Source: a virus (taxonomy: Duplodnaviria > Caudoviricetes). Taken from it: 31,494 nucleotides of DNA. The translations under genes were made by a program, and so were the position numbers. The stretch spans positions 1 through 31,494 of the IMG/VR virus record IMGVR_UViG_3300022917_000022; one strand, given 5' to 3'. A model generated the notes under the pieces. That model was not told the origin of the DNA. It did no database searches and worked only from the letters and a program-made list of their open reading frames with translations. Positions 5,972 to 14,206 of the stretch are shown in pieces (positions within the stretch are counted from its first letter, which is position 1; every line of letters starts with the position of its first letter).

Positions 5972-6029
5972 CCATGACAACGCTGCAAGACCACTGCCGC
6001 GGGATGAGGGGGTGAACAATGGAGCCATC

Positions 6030-6239
6030 ATGGCGAAGCTAATCCCGCTCGAGACCTGGGCCGCGAGCCGCTACGACCCGCCGCCGTCTGCCTGGGTGCT
6101 GCGCAAGTGGGTGCGCGACGGCGAGATTTACCCGGCGCCGGAGAAGGTCGGCAAGGGCTGGCGCGTGCTCGAGACTGCCCGGCGGCTTACCGGCGACGTT
6201 CCCGTAGGCGGCGGCCTGCTCGAGCAATTGCAGGCATGA
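6030..6239 (+). CDS. xis: Excisionase, lambda Xis family
   Basis: LETWAASRYDPPPSAWVLRKWVRDGEIYPAPEKVGKGWRV closely resembles lambda Xis; GGAG RBS; directly upstream of int. Confidence 0.92.
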   Translation: MAKLIPLETWAASRYDPPPSAWVLRKWVRDGEIYPAPEKVGKGWRVLETARRLTGDVPVGGGLLEQLQA

Positions 6240-7297
6240 GCCCCGCGCGTCGTAGCATCAAGCGCCGGGACTGGCCTCGAGGTCTGCGCGAGACCCGGCC
6301 CGGGTACTACTCCTGGGATCACCCTGACGGGCGGTCGCTGGCAATCGGCCGGGTTCCGCTGGCCGCGGCGAAGAACGAGGCCATGCTGGCGAACCAGCAC
6401 GTTGCGGCGCAGCGGCCCGGCCTGCTCGAGCGCGTTACCGGTGTCAGCAACACCGTCGCCGCCCTGCTCGAGCTCATGCCGGTACCGGCGAACAAGAACA
6501 CGGCCAAGAGCTGGCGCAGCCTGGACAAGATCATCGGACTCGAGCTCGGCGCCATCCGGTGCAGCGAGCTCAAGACGAAGGACTGCGCCGGCTTGCTGCG
6601 GAAGCTGATCGAGTCCGGGCGGGAGCGGACGGCCGAGGCGGTGCGCTCGAGGTTGATCGCCGTCTGCCAATACGGCCAGGCCGAGGGCTGGCTCGAGAGC
6701 AACCCCGCCGAAGTGACCCGTCGTCCGGAGGTAGAGGTGAAGCGGGGCCGGTTGACGCTCGAGGCCTTCAAGGCGATCCGAGCTCGAGCCCACGAGGTCG
6801 CGGAGTGGCTGCCGCTGGCGATGGACCTGGGCATTGTCACCGCGGCCGACCGGTCGACCCTGGCGGCGCTCGAGCGCAAGGACATAGGGCCGGAAGCGCT
6901 GACAGTTCACCGCGGGAAGACCGGGGCCCTGCTCGAGATCCCGCTACGCATCCGTCTGGATGTGCTCGAACTCGAACTCTCAGAAGTGCTGAAGCGCCGG
7001 ACGGGCGTCGTCTCGAGACACATCATCCACCACGTCGCCCAGTGGGGGAACGCTCCGGCCGGGTCGCCTGTCTTCCCGGACCGCATCAGCAAGGCCTTCA
7101 CCGCCGCTCGAGTGCTGGCCGGCATCCCGGACGAGGCCGCGCCCACCTTCCACGAGATCCGGAGCCTTTCCAAGCGGCTCTATGACGCGCAGGGGAACGT
7201 GGACACCAAGGCACTCCTAGGTCACGCGACGGAGCGCATGAGCGAGCTCTACGCGAACCCCCGAGGGGCTGAGGCCATCAAGGTCCGCGTTGGCTGA
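6236..7297 (+). CDS. int: Tyrosine integrase, lambda-Int-like with N-terminal arm-binding domain
   Basis: ATGA overlap with xis; N-terminal MSPARRS...GYYSW..P.G; KTG, PTFHEIRSL (HxxR), LLGH and C-terminal Tyr (SELY). Confidence 0.93.
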   Translation: MSPARRSIKRRDWPRGLRETRPGYYSWDHPDGRSLAIGRVPLAAAKNEAMLANQHVAAQRPGLLERVTGVSNTVAALLELMPVPANKNTAKSWRSLDKIIGLELGAIRCSELKTKDCAGLLRKLIESGRERTAEAVRSRLIAVCQYGQAEGWLESNPAEVTRRPEVEVKRGRLTLEAFKAIRARAHEVAEWLPLAMDLGIVTAADRSTLAALERKDIGPEALTVHRGKTGALLEIPLRIRLDVLELELSEVLKRRTGVVSRHIIHHVAQWGNAPAGSPVFPDRISKAFTAARVLAGIPDEAAPTFHEIRSLSKRLYDAQGNVDTKALLGHATERMSELYANPRGAEAIKVRVG

Positions 7298-7328
7298 TCC
7301 GAACGCGATCCGAACGCGAAGCGAATTC
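7296..7328 (+). repeat. Integrase arm-type sites: GATCCGAACGC x2 plus degenerate GAAGCGAATTC; related CCGAACACG at 7478-7486
   Basis: 11-bp-period tandem direct repeats flanking the core, as for lambda P'1-3 arm sites. Confidence 0.75.
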
Positions 7329-7428
7329 ACCTACGCTGAAGTGTGTTGCCCATGCAGACGAACAACACTGATGTTTTCGCCTGTGGAATCAATGACTTAG
7401 GCTCTTTTCGGAGCCACTTGAAGACCAT
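7327..7428 (-). CDS. attP mini-ORF: replacement N-terminus of a host LMW protein-tyrosine phosphatase (MVFKWLRKEPKSLIPQAKTSVLFVCMGN|TLQRR*)
   Basis: Manual translation of the - strand; SVLFVCMGN matches the LMW-PTP P-loop start (VLFVCxGNICRS) and diverges right after N; alternative TTG start at 7392. Confidence 0.75.
   Translation of the reverse strand: MVFKWLRKEPKSLIPQAKTSVLFVCMGNTLQRR
7387..7399 (+). promoter_or_regulatory. IHF binding site
   Basis: AATCAA-TGAC-TTA matches WATCAANNNNTTR exactly. Confidence 0.8.
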
Positions 7429-7451
7429 AAAATGCGTTGCGTCAGCGTCAA
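7424..7451 (-). promoter_or_regulatory. Sigma70-like promoter directed into the att core
   Basis: TTGACG-N16-TATGGT on the - strand. Confidence 0.5.
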
Positions 7452-7454
7452 ATG

Positions 7455-7467
7455 AATCAACAGGTTA
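7455..7467 (+). promoter_or_regulatory. IHF binding site
   Basis: AATCAA-CAGG-TTA matches WATCAANNNNTTR exactly. Confidence 0.8.
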
Positions 7468-7514
7468 ACGCATCAAGCCGAACACGTAGCGCCATCGGCG
7501 CGGAAGGATGAGCA

Positions 7515-7733
7515 ATGACCGACAGATTCCATAGCCTTGTCGTTGTACTTGAGCAGGACATCCGAGAAGACGACGCTCAAAACCTAATCAAGGCGATCAA
7601 ACTGCTGCGCGGTGTCGCGGACGTATCGGGCGCCGTGGCGGACTTGGCATCGCATACGGCCGAAGTTCGTGCGCGCACAGCGCTGGGCCAGCAGATCCTG
7701 GACGTCTTGTTTCCTGAGAAGCCCCAGGGATGA
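7515..7733 (+). CDS. Conserved phage hypothetical protein
   Basis: AAGGA RBS; VVLEQDIREDDAQNLIKAIKLLRGV. Confidence 0.8.
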   Translation: MTDRFHSLVVVLEQDIREDDAQNLIKAIKLLRGVADVSGAVADLASHTAEVRARTALGQQILDVLFPEKPQG

Positions 7734-7927
7734 GCATGGACGACGACATCAAGGCGATGCGCCTGGAGGCGGAATGGCTCGCATCCGGTGACGCCGAGCA
7801 CAGAGACCCCGTGTGGCTTGCGCTAAGGCTGAAGGAGACGGCGCCGCTGATCGCCCGCCTTTTGGACCGCCTGGAGGAACTGGAGGAGCGGTGTGATCCG
7901 TCGCGCCAAGATCCGAAGTGGTACTAG
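7730..7927 (+). CDS. Hypothetical protein
   Basis: ATGA-coupled to the upstream gene. Confidence 0.65.
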   Translation: MSMDDDIKAMRLEAEWLASGDAEHRDPVWLALRLKETAPLIARLLDRLEELEERCDPSRQDPKWY

Positions 7928-7930
7928 CCG

Positions 7931-8134
7931 ATGCCCGAGCACTTCCCCACCCCGTGCTGGCAGTGCCACTTCTTCGACGGGTGGACTGCCGGCGGGACTC
8001 ATAGCGTCTGCTCGGAGCCGAGGTCATGCAGGGTAACCGCCGACCCTCCTAGGGGATGCGTGTTCTTCGTCAGAGAGCCGTTTACTGACGATGCGATGCC
8101 GGTGGAGTACACGGGGTGGGCTCGTCAGAAGTGA
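7931..8134 (+). CDS. Small Cys-rich (putative metal-binding) protein
   Basis: CWQC...C...C...GCVFFVREP; starts 3 nt after the upstream stop. Confidence 0.7.
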   Translation: MPEHFPTPCWQCHFFDGWTAGGTHSVCSEPRSCRVTADPPRGCVFFVREPFTDDAMPVEYTGWARQK

Positions 8135-8203
8135 AGCGGAGTCGGGCAAGCCGAGTGGTGACCTGCACCACTTGCACCCAGCCTTCCCAGGCCCAGCGAT
8201 CCC

Positions 8204-8458
8204 ATGAGGTCCAACTTCGGTTTCCAGGGCGACCTTAACGCGGCCCACTCGACTGTCACCTACCTGCCCTGTTCCTGCGGTCGCGTTGGCTACGTCCGCG
8301 CGCTGGCTTGCGAAAGCGCTCGTCTCTTCTGCGGTGGGGGCCGACTACCGCCCGCTAGCTGTTGCGCCACGTCAGTCGCCGCTCTGGCTGACCGGAAAAG
8401 GCGAAAGCCCGCAGACTTCAACCCGTCCGAGCCGGCAAGCTATGGCACCGTGTGGTGA
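8204..8458 (+). CDS. Possible hypothetical protein
   Basis: ORF only; no recognisable motif. Confidence 0.3.
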   Translation: MRSNFGFQGDLNAAHSTVTYLPCSCGRVGYVRALACESARLFCGGGRLPPASCCATSVAALADRKRRKPADFNPSEPASYGTVW

Positions 8459-8531
8459 CCTTCGGACGAGAAGAAGGCGTGCGAGCCTTCTGGGAGAGAC
8501 GATACCAAAGCTTGCCGGCTAATGGTGCCTA

Positions 8532-8717
8532 TCAGTTTAAACCCGAGGCTGTATGTACGTCCAGCGCTTTTGGTGATATTCGCGCGCGCGCATCAAACCG
8601 CCTCAGTTCCCGCCTCCACGACTCAGCAAGCGCCGGCCAGCCGATGAACTCGGCCTGTGCGATGTGATCGAGGATGCGCCTGCGGGTCCTGTTCTCGCGC
8701 TTCTTCACCGGGGCCAT
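8532..8717 (-). CDS. Possible hypothetical protein (MAPVKKRENR...)
   Basis: ORF only, at the distal end of the - strand gene block. Confidence 0.35.
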   Translation of the reverse strand: MAPVKKRENRTRRRILDHIAQAEFIGWPALAESWRRELRRFDARARISPKALDVHTASGLN

Positions 8718-8840
8718 TTCGTCGCCTCGTGCATCAGCGCTCTCCCGTACTCGGCCTCCCGCGCGATCCTCTCCGGCGTCGTATCGATCAGGTAGCGCGG
8801 GTCCCACCCGTTCCCGGGCCTGCGCTCGCGCGGAGCCGGA

Positions 8841-9254
8841 TCAGGCGGCTTGCGGCGGAACTTGGGCGGCGGGCGTGGCATTGGGATAGCGCCGACGAAG
8901 TTCGAGCACGGCAGCGGCCGACCAGTTGGCGAACTCGCCGATGCCCTTGGTTTGGCGCATGACGCCGTATGGATCGTTGCCGATCTGGGCGAGCATCGCC
9001 TCCCAGAACAGTTCGTGGTCGGGCTTGTCCAGCAGAGACTGGCCCATCGTGATGTGCTCGCGGGTCGCGGCGGCTCCATCAAGGACCGCGGCGGTCGCCG
9101 ATGCGTTGGCGGCGAGTTCGGCTTCTGTCGAAGCGCGGCGCAGGCGCAGGCTCTCGTACGCGAGATGCGTCTCGTAGGGCGCATTTGCGGGTGGTGGGGC
9201 CGGCAGCGGCGGTAGCGTCGGCGCTGGCGTTGGGGCTTGGGTGGGGTCGGCCAT
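8841..9254 (-). CDS. Hypothetical protein with Pro-rich N-terminus
   Basis: Tightly packed in the - strand operon; MADPTQAPTPAPTLPPLPAPPP. Confidence 0.7.
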   Translation of the reverse strand: MADPTQAPTPAPTLPPLPAPPPANAPYETHLAYESLRLRRASTEAELAANASATAAVLDGAAATREHITMGQSLLDKPDHELFWEAMLAQIGNDPYGVMRQTKGIGEFANWSAAAVLELRRRYPNATPAAQVPPQAA

Positions 9255-10456: not shown

Positions 10457-11842
10457 CTACCACCCCGAGTTGGCGACGTTGCTCACCAGCAGCGTCACGT
10501 TGTACGGCTCAGTCCCGGCCCCGCCGGTGAGGTTGATGTTCGCGGCGTCCACCGTCACGGACAGCGGAGACCACTGGTTGCTGCCAGTCTTGAAGCTGGC
10601 GAACGCTCCGAGGATCAGCTTGTAATAGGTGCCGCCCTTGCCGTGCGCGACGGTCGCAGCCCCACCCACCAGGTTGCCCGCGAAGTCGTTGTTGAAGAAC
10701 GCGCGGTTGTTCTGGATGCTGAGCGGCCAGGCCGTCGTGGTGACGACGAGCGGCTGGGCGGTGAAATTGAAGGGCTGGTCTACCCCATCGAAGACCGGCG
10801 AGCGCATGGTGAACGCCGTCGATGGAACCGTGAAGTTGATCCCGTAGCCGGGAGCCGGGATCGAGTTGAATCGCGCCGAGTCGATCGCGATGCTGACCAG
10901 CGGATCGTCAACCCGCAGGCCATCGCCGCCGACGTTGTACACGTAGGCGTCGAAGCTGATCTTTGCCCCCGGCGCGTTCTTGATCCACACCCCGTGCGAA
11001 GCGCTCGAACAGATCCAGACCTTCGCGGGAAAGTTGATCCACATCTGCGACGGATCAGGGTTGTCGATCACGCAGTTGCACCGCGTGGCGGCATCCAGGA
11101 ACACGGTCGGCGAGAAGAACACTTCGCGGTTCGTCTCGTCTACCAGCGTCTGGTCGATCACCACGTTGTCGCCGTTCGCTGCGATGTCCCCGCTGCCGAA
11201 GGCGATGCCACCGAAGGCACCGCCCACCCGCAGGCCAACATCGCACAGCGTGATCTTGTACTGGTCCATGTAGAGGCCAGCCTTGGGGAGCGCCCCAACC
11301 AGGCCGTTCACCTGAACGCCATCCTTCTGCGCCCTGGCCGTGTAGTTCGTGAAGTAGGTGTTGTCCACCCCGTTGAACCGGATCCCGTGCCAGAGGCGCC
11401 CCAAGCCGTCCTGCCCATCCGGGATCACGTCGATGACTTCGGAGCGGCACAGGCGCATCAAGTGAATGCCGATGCCACCCGTCATGACCGTGGTGCTCGT
11501 GACCCGGAAGCCCTGGAGCTGCACCTTGATGCTGTTGGCCGAGAGGGAGCCGATCGACAGGATGTCGTTCGTCGTGTTCGCGCCCGAGTAGACGAACTGC
11601 ACGGACTCGGAGTTGTCGCCGACCATGCCCCAGTTGCTCGCGGCTGCGATGGCCACCGCAGAGCTGAGCTTGTACGTGCCGTTGGGGATGTAGCCGATCT
11701 TGCTCTTGGACTGGAGGTAGGTTGCGAACGCCAGCAGGGCCGCGGAGCAGTCGTCGGCTCCCGTGGGGTCGGCCTCGAAGTCCGCAACGAAGTCGATCCG
11801 CTGGTTGAGCTTCGTGGCGTTCTTGAATGCTTTGCTGCTCAT
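10457..11842 (-). CDS. Second tailspike/depolymerase (beta-helix, pectate-lyase-3-like) without head-binding domain
   Basis: DFEADPTGADDCSAAL...YIPNGTY beta-helix cap directly after a very short N-terminus. Confidence 0.85.
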   Translation of the reverse strand: MSSKAFKNATKLNQRIDFVADFEADPTGADDCSAALLAFATYLQSKSKIGYIPNGTYKLSSAVAIAAASNWGMVGDNSESVQFVYSGANTTNDILSIGSLSANSIKVQLQGFRVTSTTVMTGGIGIHLMRLCRSEVIDVIPDGQDGLGRLWHGIRFNGVDNTYFTNYTARAQKDGVQVNGLVGALPKAGLYMDQYKITLCDVGLRVGGAFGGIAFGSGDIAANGDNVVIDQTLVDETNREVFFSPTVFLDAATRCNCVIDNPDPSQMWINFPAKVWICSSASHGVWIKNAPGAKISFDAYVYNVGGDGLRVDDPLVSIAIDSARFNSIPAPGYGINFTVPSTAFTMRSPVFDGVDQPFNFTAQPLVVTTTAWPLSIQNNRAFFNNDFAGNLVGGAATVAHGKGGTYYKLILGAFASFKTGSNQWSPLSVTVDAANINLTGGAGTEPYNVTLLVSNVANSGW

Positions 11843-11845
11843 GGC

Positions 11846-14206
11846 TCAGAGGGGTGTGAGGACCAGGGCGAGCACGCCGCAGTCGTTGGCCAGGGTGTCG
11901 GCACCGTCTCCACCTATGCGCGAGATGCGCAAAAACATCGTCGTGTTGGCGGCGATGGGGAGGTCTGCAGCGAGGGTCGTTTCCTTCACCACGTCTTGAG
12001 CGGGAGCGGCCACAGTGAAGTTGCCGGCGCCGGAGTCCGCGGCGTTGATGTTTGTGGTGTCGGCCGCGTTGAGGTAGCCGATCGCGAACACGACGTTGCC
12101 GGAGCCAGCCCCGGCGTTCGTCCACACCAGCTTTACCCGGACGCGGGTTGCCGCGGTCGCGTTGAAATAGGCCTGGCACCCCAGGATCTCGGTGCCGGCA
12201 GCATCGAGCAGCCAAGCCTGACGGCGCCCACCGCCGACCGTGCCAAGGGTTGGGGACCCCGACACCGCGGTCATGGCCGCGGCGGGCAACGCGAGGGGCA
12301 GCAGGTTCAGCGCCTCGCCCGTCGAGGCAACGGTGATGGCCTGGGTCGTCGAGAAGTTCTGCAGCACCGCCCGGCTTTCGTACTTCCCGGCAAAGCTGGA
12401 CATCAGGAGGCCCGTGCCGAGGTTCCCGCTGGCGCCGGGCGAGCCGTTCACGGCCGTGCCGTAGTCGCGCCCACTCATGTGCGCGCCCAGCAGCAGGCTC
12501 GATGCAGCGGTGGCTGCGCCGATCTTGACTCCGCCGCCATCGGCTGCCGTGGGTGCGTTCTGCGCCACGTTGCGCACCGTGCCGTCGATGCTCAGCACGC
12601 CAAACCACGTCGTCGCGTTGACGAACCAGCGGCCGATGTTCGAGACCGCGCCCGGCTTGATCGTGAGGCCGGCGGCTGTGGCCTGGTTCAGGACCACCGC
12701 ATCGCTGCGGGCGTTGGACATCGCGCCGCCAACCCACACGATATCGGCCAGCGACGGAGTTGCAGCGCAGCCGTCCAGGGCGAACAGAACGTCGGCGGTG
12801 GCGATCGACCCGACACCGCCAAGGTTGCCGTCAGCAAAGCACCCCGTGAAGATGACGGACGCGATCTTGTCGCTGGCACGAGAGGTGCGGAGCTGCACCA
12901 GGCGGTCGGCCTGCTGGAAGAGGCAGCCGGTGAAGAACACCGTATCGCAACCATCGATCAGCAGCGCGAATTCGGCCATCGGGTCGCGGCTGCCGTCCGT
13001 GGCGATCTGGCCGGCGATGCTGGTGCTGGTGAACGAGAAGGCCGCGGTCGTCTTTGCGCCCGCGTCGTAGTTCTTCACCACCACCGCGCGCGATCCGCTC
13101 TTGCGCTTGGCCGCGAAGTTCAGACCGGTGTAAATCTGCGACGCCGACACGCCGCCGTTCGTGCAGCCGTTGACCTCCAGGCAAACCAGGTGGTTCGCAA
13201 TGCGCGCGTCGTGCGTTCGCCAGCCGTCAACCCGGACCACCTCCACGCCGATCCCTGCGTTATGGTCCAGGCCGTTCGTCACATCGACGGTCATGCCCTC
13301 GATGCCGCCGCCGTACAGCAGCGTGGTGGCGGGGTCTGACGAAGCCCACCTCAGCGAACCGGTCGTCGCCGACTCGTTGACGATCTGCGTCGCCAACATG
13401 CCCTCGCCCACCAGGTAGACATGCGAGTAAGCGATGTTGATGCGGCCCGCCAGGCGGTAGTAGCCGCGCGGGAAGAAGATCTCGATCGGGCCGGAAGACG
13501 TGGCGCCCAGTTCGTCGATCAGGTCCTGAAGAGCGTCCGTGACGATGACGCCATAGGAGCCGATCACGCCTTTGTCGAGAACGCTCACGCGCTGGCGCAG
13601 CTTGTCGCGCACGTTCGTCGCAACAGAGTCCGCCCCTGCCGGGGTGTACGGGATCAGTGACGCATCGCTGAGGGTGGATCGGTTGAACCCAACTCCTGCG
13701 GTGGCGGTGATCTCGTCGCCTTCCTCCAGGTCGTACCGGAAGGTGATGCCAGTTCCGTCCGCGTCCTCGGTGTAGTCGATGTCGCGGCGCATCCCGAGGC
13801 CGTTGCGCTCGATGCGAACCGAACGAATGCCTGCGGTGAATCCGATCTCGGAGAAGGCGATGGAGCGCTGCCCCGCTACAGCGACTTTCGTTTCCTCGTC
13901 GAACTGGTTGACGGAGGAGCCGTTGGCGCTTGCCTCGTAGCTGACCTGAACGCCGGTCCGGTCCTTGATGAGCTGGGAGTAGACGCCGGGGACATACACC
14001 TTCGCGGGCGTCCCCGACCGGGCGATGTACCCGTTGATGGTCTTCAGCGGCTGGGCGGCCGGCTGCGATCCGGTCACGTCCCAGTAGACCGGCAGGGGGC
14101 TGGTGATCGGGTTCTGGTTCTCAACGCCGATGTAGACCGAGCCTCCCTCCAGGGGGCGGCCGTCTCGACCAAGGAACAGCGGGAATGGGGTGTCGATTGC
14201 GAGCAT
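11846..14206 (-). CDS. Primary tailspike with P22-like head-binding N-terminus, beta-helix body and C-terminal beta-sandwich
   Basis: PFPLFLGRDGRPLEGGSVYIG N-terminus; YTPAGADSVATNVRDKLRQRVSV neck; IFFPRGYY beta-helix start. Confidence 0.88.
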   Translation of the reverse strand: MLAIDTPFPLFLGRDGRPLEGGSVYIGVENQNPITSPLPVYWDVTGSQPAAQPLKTINGYIARSGTPAKVYVPGVYSQLIKDRTGVQVSYEASANGSSVNQFDEETKVAVAGQRSIAFSEIGFTAGIRSVRIERNGLGMRRDIDYTEDADGTGITFRYDLEEGDEITATAGVGFNRSTLSDASLIPYTPAGADSVATNVRDKLRQRVSVLDKGVIGSYGVIVTDALQDLIDELGATSSGPIEIFFPRGYYRLAGRINIAYSHVYLVGEGMLATQIVNESATTGSLRWASSDPATTLLYGGGIEGMTVDVTNGLDHNAGIGVEVVRVDGWRTHDARIANHLVCLEVNGCTNGGVSASQIYTGLNFAAKRKSGSRAVVVKNYDAGAKTTAAFSFTSTSIAGQIATDGSRDPMAEFALLIDGCDTVFFTGCLFQQADRLVQLRTSRASDKIASVIFTGCFADGNLGGVGSIATADVLFALDGCAATPSLADIVWVGGAMSNARSDAVVLNQATAAGLTIKPGAVSNIGRWFVNATTWFGVLSIDGTVRNVAQNAPTAADGGGVKIGAATAASSLLLGAHMSGRDYGTAVNGSPGASGNLGTGLLMSSFAGKYESRAVLQNFSTTQAITVASTGEALNLLPLALPAAAMTAVSGSPTLGTVGGGRRQAWLLDAAGTEILGCQAYFNATAATRVRVKLVWTNAGAGSGNVVFAIGYLNAADTTNINAADSGAGNFTVAAPAQDVVKETTLAADLPIAANTTMFLRISRIGGDGADTLANDCGVLALVLTPL

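Follow-up and report, generated by a model that had tools for sequence, protein, structure and literature searches.

A phage attP arm that would rebuild the catalytic-loop end of a host tyrosine phosphatase gene on integration

The phage attachment site described here very probably recombines, through its long arm and core, into the P-loop codons of a host gene for a protein tyrosine phosphatase of low molecular weight (LMW-PTP; ptp) and rebuilds the gene in frame, as its relatives do. The initial annotation had proposed that the phage arm would rebuild the gene on integration, and three lysogens of related phages, with a phage-encoded N-terminus and an open frame, bear the rebuilding out for relatives. 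The stretch of DNA analysed (the window) is the whole virus record of 31,494 bases, whose portal and coat proteins were P22-like by Pfam profile search. The insertion target uvrB-ptp-iscR was observed in relatives, and we infer it for this phage.

The xis-int pair sits immediately ahead of attP, as a lambda/HK022-type attP requires, and attP is located in the 217-bp gap after int. The integrase (Int) is 33.7% identical to HK022 Int, 35.8% identical to the best match from a cultured phage, and 64, 57, and 54% identical to the integrases of three ptp-inserted prophages. A search for cultured phages with similar attP DNA gave none (24 matches, all chance-level). The features of the module are as follows.

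6012..6239, + strand: excisionase (Xis; Pfam Exc, E 8.5e-12)
6236..7297, + strand: lambda/HK022-type tyrosine integrase, 353 aa (Pfam Phage_int_M; PHROG integrase)
7299..7323, + strand: tandem repeats CCGAACGCG in the short arm, likely arm-type sites for Int (repeat family D1)
7327..7428, - strand: 33-aa mini-ORF of the free attP (translation; homologous arms fused to full phosphatases)
7344..7359, - strand: att core GTCTGCATGGGCAACA with the codons for V-C-M-G-N of the host P-loop (exact 16-bp identity)
7387..7399, - strand: IHF-like site TAAGTCATTGATT, with TTG 7392-7390 inside it (9/9 consensus match)
7400..7415, - strand: hairpin GGCTC-CGAAAA-GAGCC (predicted fold)
7424..7451, - strand: sigma-70-like promoter match TTGACG-N16-TATGGT (motif and matrix scan)
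7455..7467, - strand: a further IHF-like site, TAACCTGTTGATT, with the Cys codon 111 nt downstream (consensus match)
7478..7491, + strand: distal arm-type repeat CCGAACACG, likely the outer end of the long arm (repeat match)

By sequence matches, a short core is thus flanked by arm-type repeats (positions 7299, 7310, and 7478) and two IHF-like sites. The repeats at 7299..7323 are presumably arm-type sites, as in the lambda att architecture, and both IHF-like sites were scored against the IHF consensus. The hairpin forms the 5' end of the leader predicted for a TTG start and overlaps a possible inverted arm site. Six small ORFs at 7515-8889 (+) lie beyond attP and are read in the direction of xis-int; they had no Pfam or PHROG match, and integration would sever them from the early transcript. 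No terminator-like site was found in 7200-8300, and a LexA-like box occurs at 8549 of the window.

The - strand frame of attP, MVFKWLRKEPKSLIPQAKTSVLFVCMGNTLQRR followed by a stop, runs from ATG 7428-7426 to TGA 7329-7327 and encodes 33 aa. All that the initial annotation had read there, the frame with its motifs and an in-frame TTG at 7392, is present in the sequence. Beside Int, attP encodes ...VLFVCMGN, a look-alike of the LMW-PTP front end. The first 24 codons of the mini-ORF (or 12 from TTG 7392) would serve as the replacement N-terminus, and the IHF-like site 7387..7399 lies within them, in agreement with the overlap claimed earlier. The core at 7344-7359 was exactly identical over 16 bp to 6 of 12 matched host-genome loci (uvrB-ptp-iscR, group I LMW-PTP), the 12 being P-loop pattern matches among 41 genomes related to a Rubrivivax metagenome-assembled genome (MAG). 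A host LMW-PTP gene with this nucleotide core, the target of close relatives, does exist, and the claim that the core lies in P-loop codons near the 5' end of that gene was confirmed. Its extent, given earlier as about 7344-7371, is corrected here: exact identity with host genes spans 7344-7359, and over 7360-7371 the likeness to the host is in amino acids rather than DNA. Junction comparisons gave 14-20 bp of DNA in common, centred on TGC ATG GGC AA. The 7-bp overlap is likely ATGGGCA at 7353-7347, directly after the Cys codon 7356-7354, a position deduced from the imperfect inverted flanks GTCTGC/ACACAC. The P-loop Cys is the catalytic nucleophile; with the crossover likely just after its codon, the nucleophile would be supplied by the phage.

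Relatives of Int were collected in three scans (7, 20, and 34 loci). The P-loop peptide was encoded downstream of int, on the opposite strand, at 7 of 53 relative loci, of which 8 end at most 15 bases from int and could not show it. Among relatives at least 56% identical, the ptp motif was downstream of int in 6 of 9 and was not found there in the other three (L027, L058, and L031). Two of the seven loci with the peptide (L001 and L004) were free attP sites resembling that of the window, four (L008, L009, L010, and L053) were prophage ends with a stranded piece of the phosphatase gene behind uvrB, and one (L030) was assigned to neither group.

Both junctions were recovered in three genomes, namely Cupriavidus respiraculi, Pelomonas sp. 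V22, and the Rubrivivax MAG. The far junction joins MKKFSVLMCCMGN to ICRSP in C. respiraculi, and sequences ending in MRKAAVLFVCMGN and MRKPKMAVLFVCSGN to ICRSP in the Rubrivivax MAG and Pelomonas sp. V22, respectively. The insertion locus was uvrB-ptp-iscR-iscS in 3 of 3 lysogens, with iscR-iscS following the rebuilt phosphatase in each. The inserts were a myo-type prophage of about 47 kb in C. respiraculi, a podo-type prophage of about 58 kb in the Rubrivivax MAG, and a sipho-type prophage of about 43 kb in Pelomonas sp. V22; all contained terminase, portal, and tail genes and a related Int at the stub end. Pfam Terminase_6C found no terminase in the three prophages, and PHROGs found terminases in all of them. 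The rebuilt proteins (L060-L062) had no internal stop, scored above the Pfam LMWPc cut-off, and kept CX5R and DPY/FY, so that the fused frame at the att junction, whose closure the initial annotation had named as a counter-case, is open in the close relatives. Their first 9-27 residues, Cys included, are phage-derived. In these lysogens the insertion lies in the 5' coding region and an in-frame N-terminus is supplied; for the window's own phage, the location in the 5' coding region is read from core identity only. No junction of this very phage was found, and the sole DNA run with the stretch, possibly its source, has no loose end at the core; no RNA run was listed with it. The far junctions of two further genomes (G004 and G005) were not found in their trimmed records. 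One more genome (G406) had an arm-type junction, for which the search gave no Int and no stub.

To cover a broader set of arms, an arm pattern (IHF-like site, 21 free bases, P-loop codons) was used. It matched 7 viral and 44 metagenome loci, one of which is the window, and undercounts arms with other IHF spacing (e.g., L001). From 57 entries, removal of 7 duplicates left 50 loci: 13 attP sites with Int (including the window), 3 proven lysogen junctions, 17 full-length arms that also have a second IHF-like site (assigned partly by eye), 2 truncated arms without detected Int, and 15 loci without arm hallmarks. The last 15 did not enter the selection tests; several of them are native genes located behind kdsB or uvrB. 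Like the window, twelve further free attP sites adjoining an Int end after CMG[NS]. The position of the IHF-like site within the coding arm was shared by the window, 4 of the 5 other arms recovered by way of Int, and L131, which came from a search without an IHF term. The best match for the second site was at -109 to -112 in most arms and at about -123 in a subgroup.

The pattern leaves codons -11 to -5 free; in 35 arms they contained 0 stops in 198 must-code codons (17.1 expected), and codons upstream of an ATG in the same arms had 3 stops in 32 (3.5 expected). With one arm per 60% cluster, 0 stops were counted in 161 codons (13.75 expected; 0 of 20000 shuffles), and attP arms only gave 0 in 75 (5.4 expected; 61 of 20000 shuffles); the arms in these tests are related to one another. 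The residue at -7 was K/R in 22 of 29 arms (6.4 expected), and that at -6 was hydrophobic in 23 of 29. For the 6 arms that did not come from the pattern, the shortage of stops was not significant (0 against 1.55; 3790 of 20000 shuffles), and K/R was present at -7 in 6 of 6. By these codon comparisons, the arms are under coding selection.

Among 401 genomes of the host family, the arm pattern matched only the known lysogen, with 0 matches in the 400 others; lysogens are therefore rare, and chance does not place the pattern in native genes of the family. No second stub was found upstream in the 51 pattern loci. Five loci (L086, L089, L106, L112, and L115) had FG-GAP, TSP3 repeats, and peptidases upstream of arm-type junctions; as such cargo is typical of islands, non-phage elements may use the same site. 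Apparently native phosphatase genes also had this IHF-like site, 43 nt ahead of Cys, namely L087 and L076 (uvrB upstream), L082, L084, L098, L099, and L103 (kdsB upstream), and L083 and L114. Several of them lack an ATG and seem to start at the TTG in that site. These genes may be scars or domesticated arms.

In the native context, the ptp start overlapped the uvrB stop in 6 of the 9 native loci in which that stop was located (five four-base overlaps and one one-base overlap), and the uvrB-ptp gap in lysogen stubs was 0-17 nt. Native Rubrivivax-group phosphatases (L122-L128) carried an N-terminal extension of 24-30 residues with an amphipathic start, e.g., MIKRLKDWL, possibly a membrane-targeting helix.

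Summarizing the above results, we propose the following course of integration. Int, likely with IHF at two arm sites, would recombine the core 7344-7359 with uvrB-ptp-iscR. The 5' stub of the host gene would remain behind uvrB and end in a stop, the arm would give the first beta-strand and the catalytic Cys codon, and the host would give the remaining P-loop residues (ICRS) together with the D-loop; all this was seen in relatives, in which the exact point of crossover is deduced. Since the native ptp starts at the uvrB stop or at a distance of up to about 20 nt and would then be displaced 43-58 kb from uvrB, transcription would likely come from the arm. A promoter in the arm would be needed because the native ptp is coupled to uvrB and the next genes of the window point away. 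In this phage, translation would begin from TTG 7392 or ATG 7428.

The promoter match consists of TTGACG at 7451-7446 and TATGGT at 7429-7424 with a 16-nt spacer, its -10 overlapping ATG 7428. It was the only promoter-like site in 7200-8300 (1 against 0.3 +/- 0.5 expected) and was weak, at 9.2 bits by matrix score; about 5 of 60 shuffles reached that score, and the opposite strand gave 9.1. A TAAAAT hexamer on the + strand (7428-7433) overlaps the same -10. From a -10 at 7429-7424, transcription would be expected to begin near 7417, so this promoter and ATG 7428 are incompatible. Thus, both motifs named by the initial annotation are present, but they are not a pair, as the transcript would start about 10 nt downstream of the ATG; the promoter match is compatible with TTG 7392. 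No position-conserved promoter was found across the betaproteobacterial arms, and in several other arms the distal IHF-like TTGAT is a candidate -35, with a -10 ending near -75.

An ATG was present in codons -11 to -5 of 15 of the 35 arms and absent from the other 20, and in 6 of these ATG-less arms TTG(-12) was the only ATG/GTG/TTG in the open upstream frame. The arm pattern itself fixed TTG(-12); the window, L131, and 4 of the 5 other arms found through Int also have this TTG. The TTG/IHF spacing is shared by a sister phage that uses a different target, so recombination geometry may set the position of the TTG. In favor of ATG 7428, MVFKWLRK of the window resembles the native amphipathic start. 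The window has CAG at 7383-7381 (codon -9) where many relatives have ATG, and no clear ribosome-binding site was found for ATG 7428 or TTG 7392. We consider a start at TTG 7392, fed by TTGACG/TATGGT, to have about an even chance, and one at ATG 7428, fed by another, putative upstream promoter, to be somewhat less probable than that.

Among other explanations, the best surviving one, which we nevertheless regard as unlikely, is a regulatory takeover. Here an IHF/Xis-gated new promoter and an altered or removed amphipathic helix would change the level or location of the enzyme to the benefit of the phage. The coding region does overlap IHF-like and arm sites, integration does uncouple ptp from uvrB, and native Rubrivivax-group N-termini begin amphipathic (MIKRLKxWL; hydrophobic moment 0.39-1.00). 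The moments of the arms vary, those of the window (0.61) and L069 (0.69) being alike and that of L061 (0.21) unlike the native ones. However, the residue-by-residue mimicry of the host strand by the arms is what repair predicts, no conserved phage-regulator site was found, and neither of the two uvrB upstream regions checked had a LexA-like box that would point to SOS control of uvrB-ptp. Just outside the arm of the C. respiraculi prophage (L060), a perfect LexA-like box (CTGT-N8-ACAG) was seen beside what by eye resembles an ATP-dependent ligase-domain gene; the Cys codon lies about 215 nt downstream of the box. As to the earlier claim that the phosphatase comes under phage control, no sign of regulation by a phage protein was found, and in the available account of the dusA precedent the element merely gives weaker expression (PMC8409611). 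It is similarly improbable that widespread proteobacterial phages and islands use the catalytic loop as a hotspot and rewire it, resetting tyrosine-phosphate signalling. The rewiring would comprise a start codon in an IHF site, a promoter over a recombination arm, and a rewritten membrane-seeking helix, a combination to which we give little credence. The purpose of the in-frame rebuilding would likely be to keep the enzyme working, with an ultra-conserved target site used free of cost, and not regulation.

It is very unlikely that the arm of this phage is a relic that recombines untranslated, its integration knocking the phosphatase out. Such a relic would fit the replacement of the ATG at codon -9 by CAG, the lack of a clear ribosome-binding site, the weak promoter match, and the folded leader predicted. 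On the other hand, that ATG is missing from 20 of 35 arms, the 19 of them tested had 0 stops in 133 codons (11.45 expected), and in six of the 20 TTG(-12) is the sole upstream candidate. The window also retains K(-7), S(-5), and VLFV.

The kind of phosphatase was judged from the rebuilt proteins. The nearest structure was 4LRQ (E 2e-45), with YfkJ at 1.5e-27 and Wzb far lower in the ranking at 1.6e-11. The W-loop and D-loop read SAGTHAYH and DPYY in L060, SAGTHGHH and DPYY in L061, and SAGLESFH and DPFY in L062. By the W-loop and D-loop criteria for group I LMW-PTPs in the accessible text of PMC7948962, the target is, on its motifs, a group I enzyme with a CX5R P-loop, an aromatic W-loop residue, and a DPYY-type D-loop. 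A Wzb/group II target was rejected, as the rebuilt proteins scored 55-65 bits with the Wzb model against a cut-off of 243 and their context was uvrB-ptp-iscR, not wza-wzb-wzc; the Wzb-type assignment of the initial annotation is replaced accordingly. C. respiraculi has a separate, uninterrupted, and more Wzb-like gene (L063). Elsewhere in the window, 10457-11842 and 11846-14206 (-) encode adjacent proteins with weak pectate-lyase-like matches consistent with tailspikes (E 2.7e-5 and 4.6e-4, both under the Pfam cut-off), for which no PHROG or NCBIfam match was found. The least probable explanation, also suggested initially, is that the phage tunes through a Wzb-type target the polysaccharide that its tailspikes bind: those two sub-threshold matches are its sole basis, and it is contradicted by the group I aromatic/His W-loop and DPYY/DPFY, the low Wzb scores, the insertion between uvrB and iscR-iscS in all three lysogens, and the intact L063 that C. 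respiraculi keeps.

The possibility, raised initially, that related integrases insert at other loci was absent for close relatives and did occur for distant sister integrases. In Paraburkholderia phenoliruptrix (L019/L163 and L165; G444:C12), a sister Int lies mid-gene in an apparent OmpR-type response regulator, and the same apparent target was seen in Burkholderia sp. 8Y (L025 and L160; G445:C5), L022, and the free attP L042. The regulator was recognised by eye, and the insertion separates its receiver domain from the one that binds DNA. At the far junctions the frame is open starting at a phage ATG, MKGKEKSSLLGM being joined to YRFDT... and MTAA to YRFDS..., without amino-acid mimicry of the host; such fusions would yield a receiver-less DNA-binding protein. 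In Paraburkholderia madseniana (L006/L014), a 5' stub, MQTHKRRVKTRHIILAVMCLMYFISY, lies just downstream of a sister int and resembles the start of an MFS transporter. The ptp-linked integrases, 33-64% identical to Int of this phage, formed no single clade in a FastTree phylogeny of 57 integrases (L053 and L044 left out), so this use of ptp is either ancestral or arose repeatedly.

The site appears to be an unreported integration hotspot, used by integrases that did not group together in this tree and by three phage morphotypes. The replacement N-terminus is kept open by selection, which implies a cost to hosts that lose this little-understood phosphatase, and natural lysogen/cured pairs make both that cost and the effect of the swapped N-terminus directly testable. 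For annotation, attP mini-ORFs and stranded stubs of this type are liable to be missed. The conserved core is also a candidate landing site for engineering Burkholderiales (exact pattern in 12 of 41 genomes).

The lambda/HK022 module has xis-int followed by attP, tandem repeats in the short arm, and two IHF-like sites in the long arm, and the same order was found here. In contrast to lambda and HK022, which are not known to rebuild the 5' end of a gene, the long arm here is at the same time coding sequence subject to selection. From end to end, the rebuilt protein could be aligned with VcLMWPTP1 (PDB 4LRQ; YfkJ/PtpA-like group I), with CX5R and DPYY alike; the difference from a native group I enzyme is the phage origin of the N-terminal residues of the lysogens, with Cys among them.

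Islands often rebuild their target genes, according to the accessible part of PMC12884075, one supplement of which gave no match for an LMW-PTP att target. The accessible text of PMC8138268 lists clusters at prfC and guaA, and the word phosphatase does not occur in it. The mainly open-access literature covered yielded no report of an LMW-PTP att target, the candidate papers checked being unrelated, and the TIGER survey (PMC7192596) may list it. In the available text of PMC8409611, the dusA elements (IMEVchUSA3) likewise use a tyrosine integrase to enter a conserved gene within its 5' coding region; they bring an altered N-terminus with the frame restored, as in the ptp relatives, and supply a new promoter. 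They differ in target and integrase family, and their promoter was measured and found lower than the native one, whereas the ptp promoter is predicted. SXT/R391 ICEs in prfC match the ptp case in mechanism, as far as the parts of PMC8409611 and PMC8138268 at hand describe it; they are conjugative elements with an IntSXT-type integrase and release factor 3 as the target. The authors of PMC8409611 state, in the same portion, that the effect of the swapped N-terminus is not known for dusA and prfC. The mechanism is thus already known and the LMW-PTP target appears new; compared with dusA, the elements in ptp are tailed phages that use a lambda-type Int/Xis pair, and their crossover likely splits a catalytic loop.
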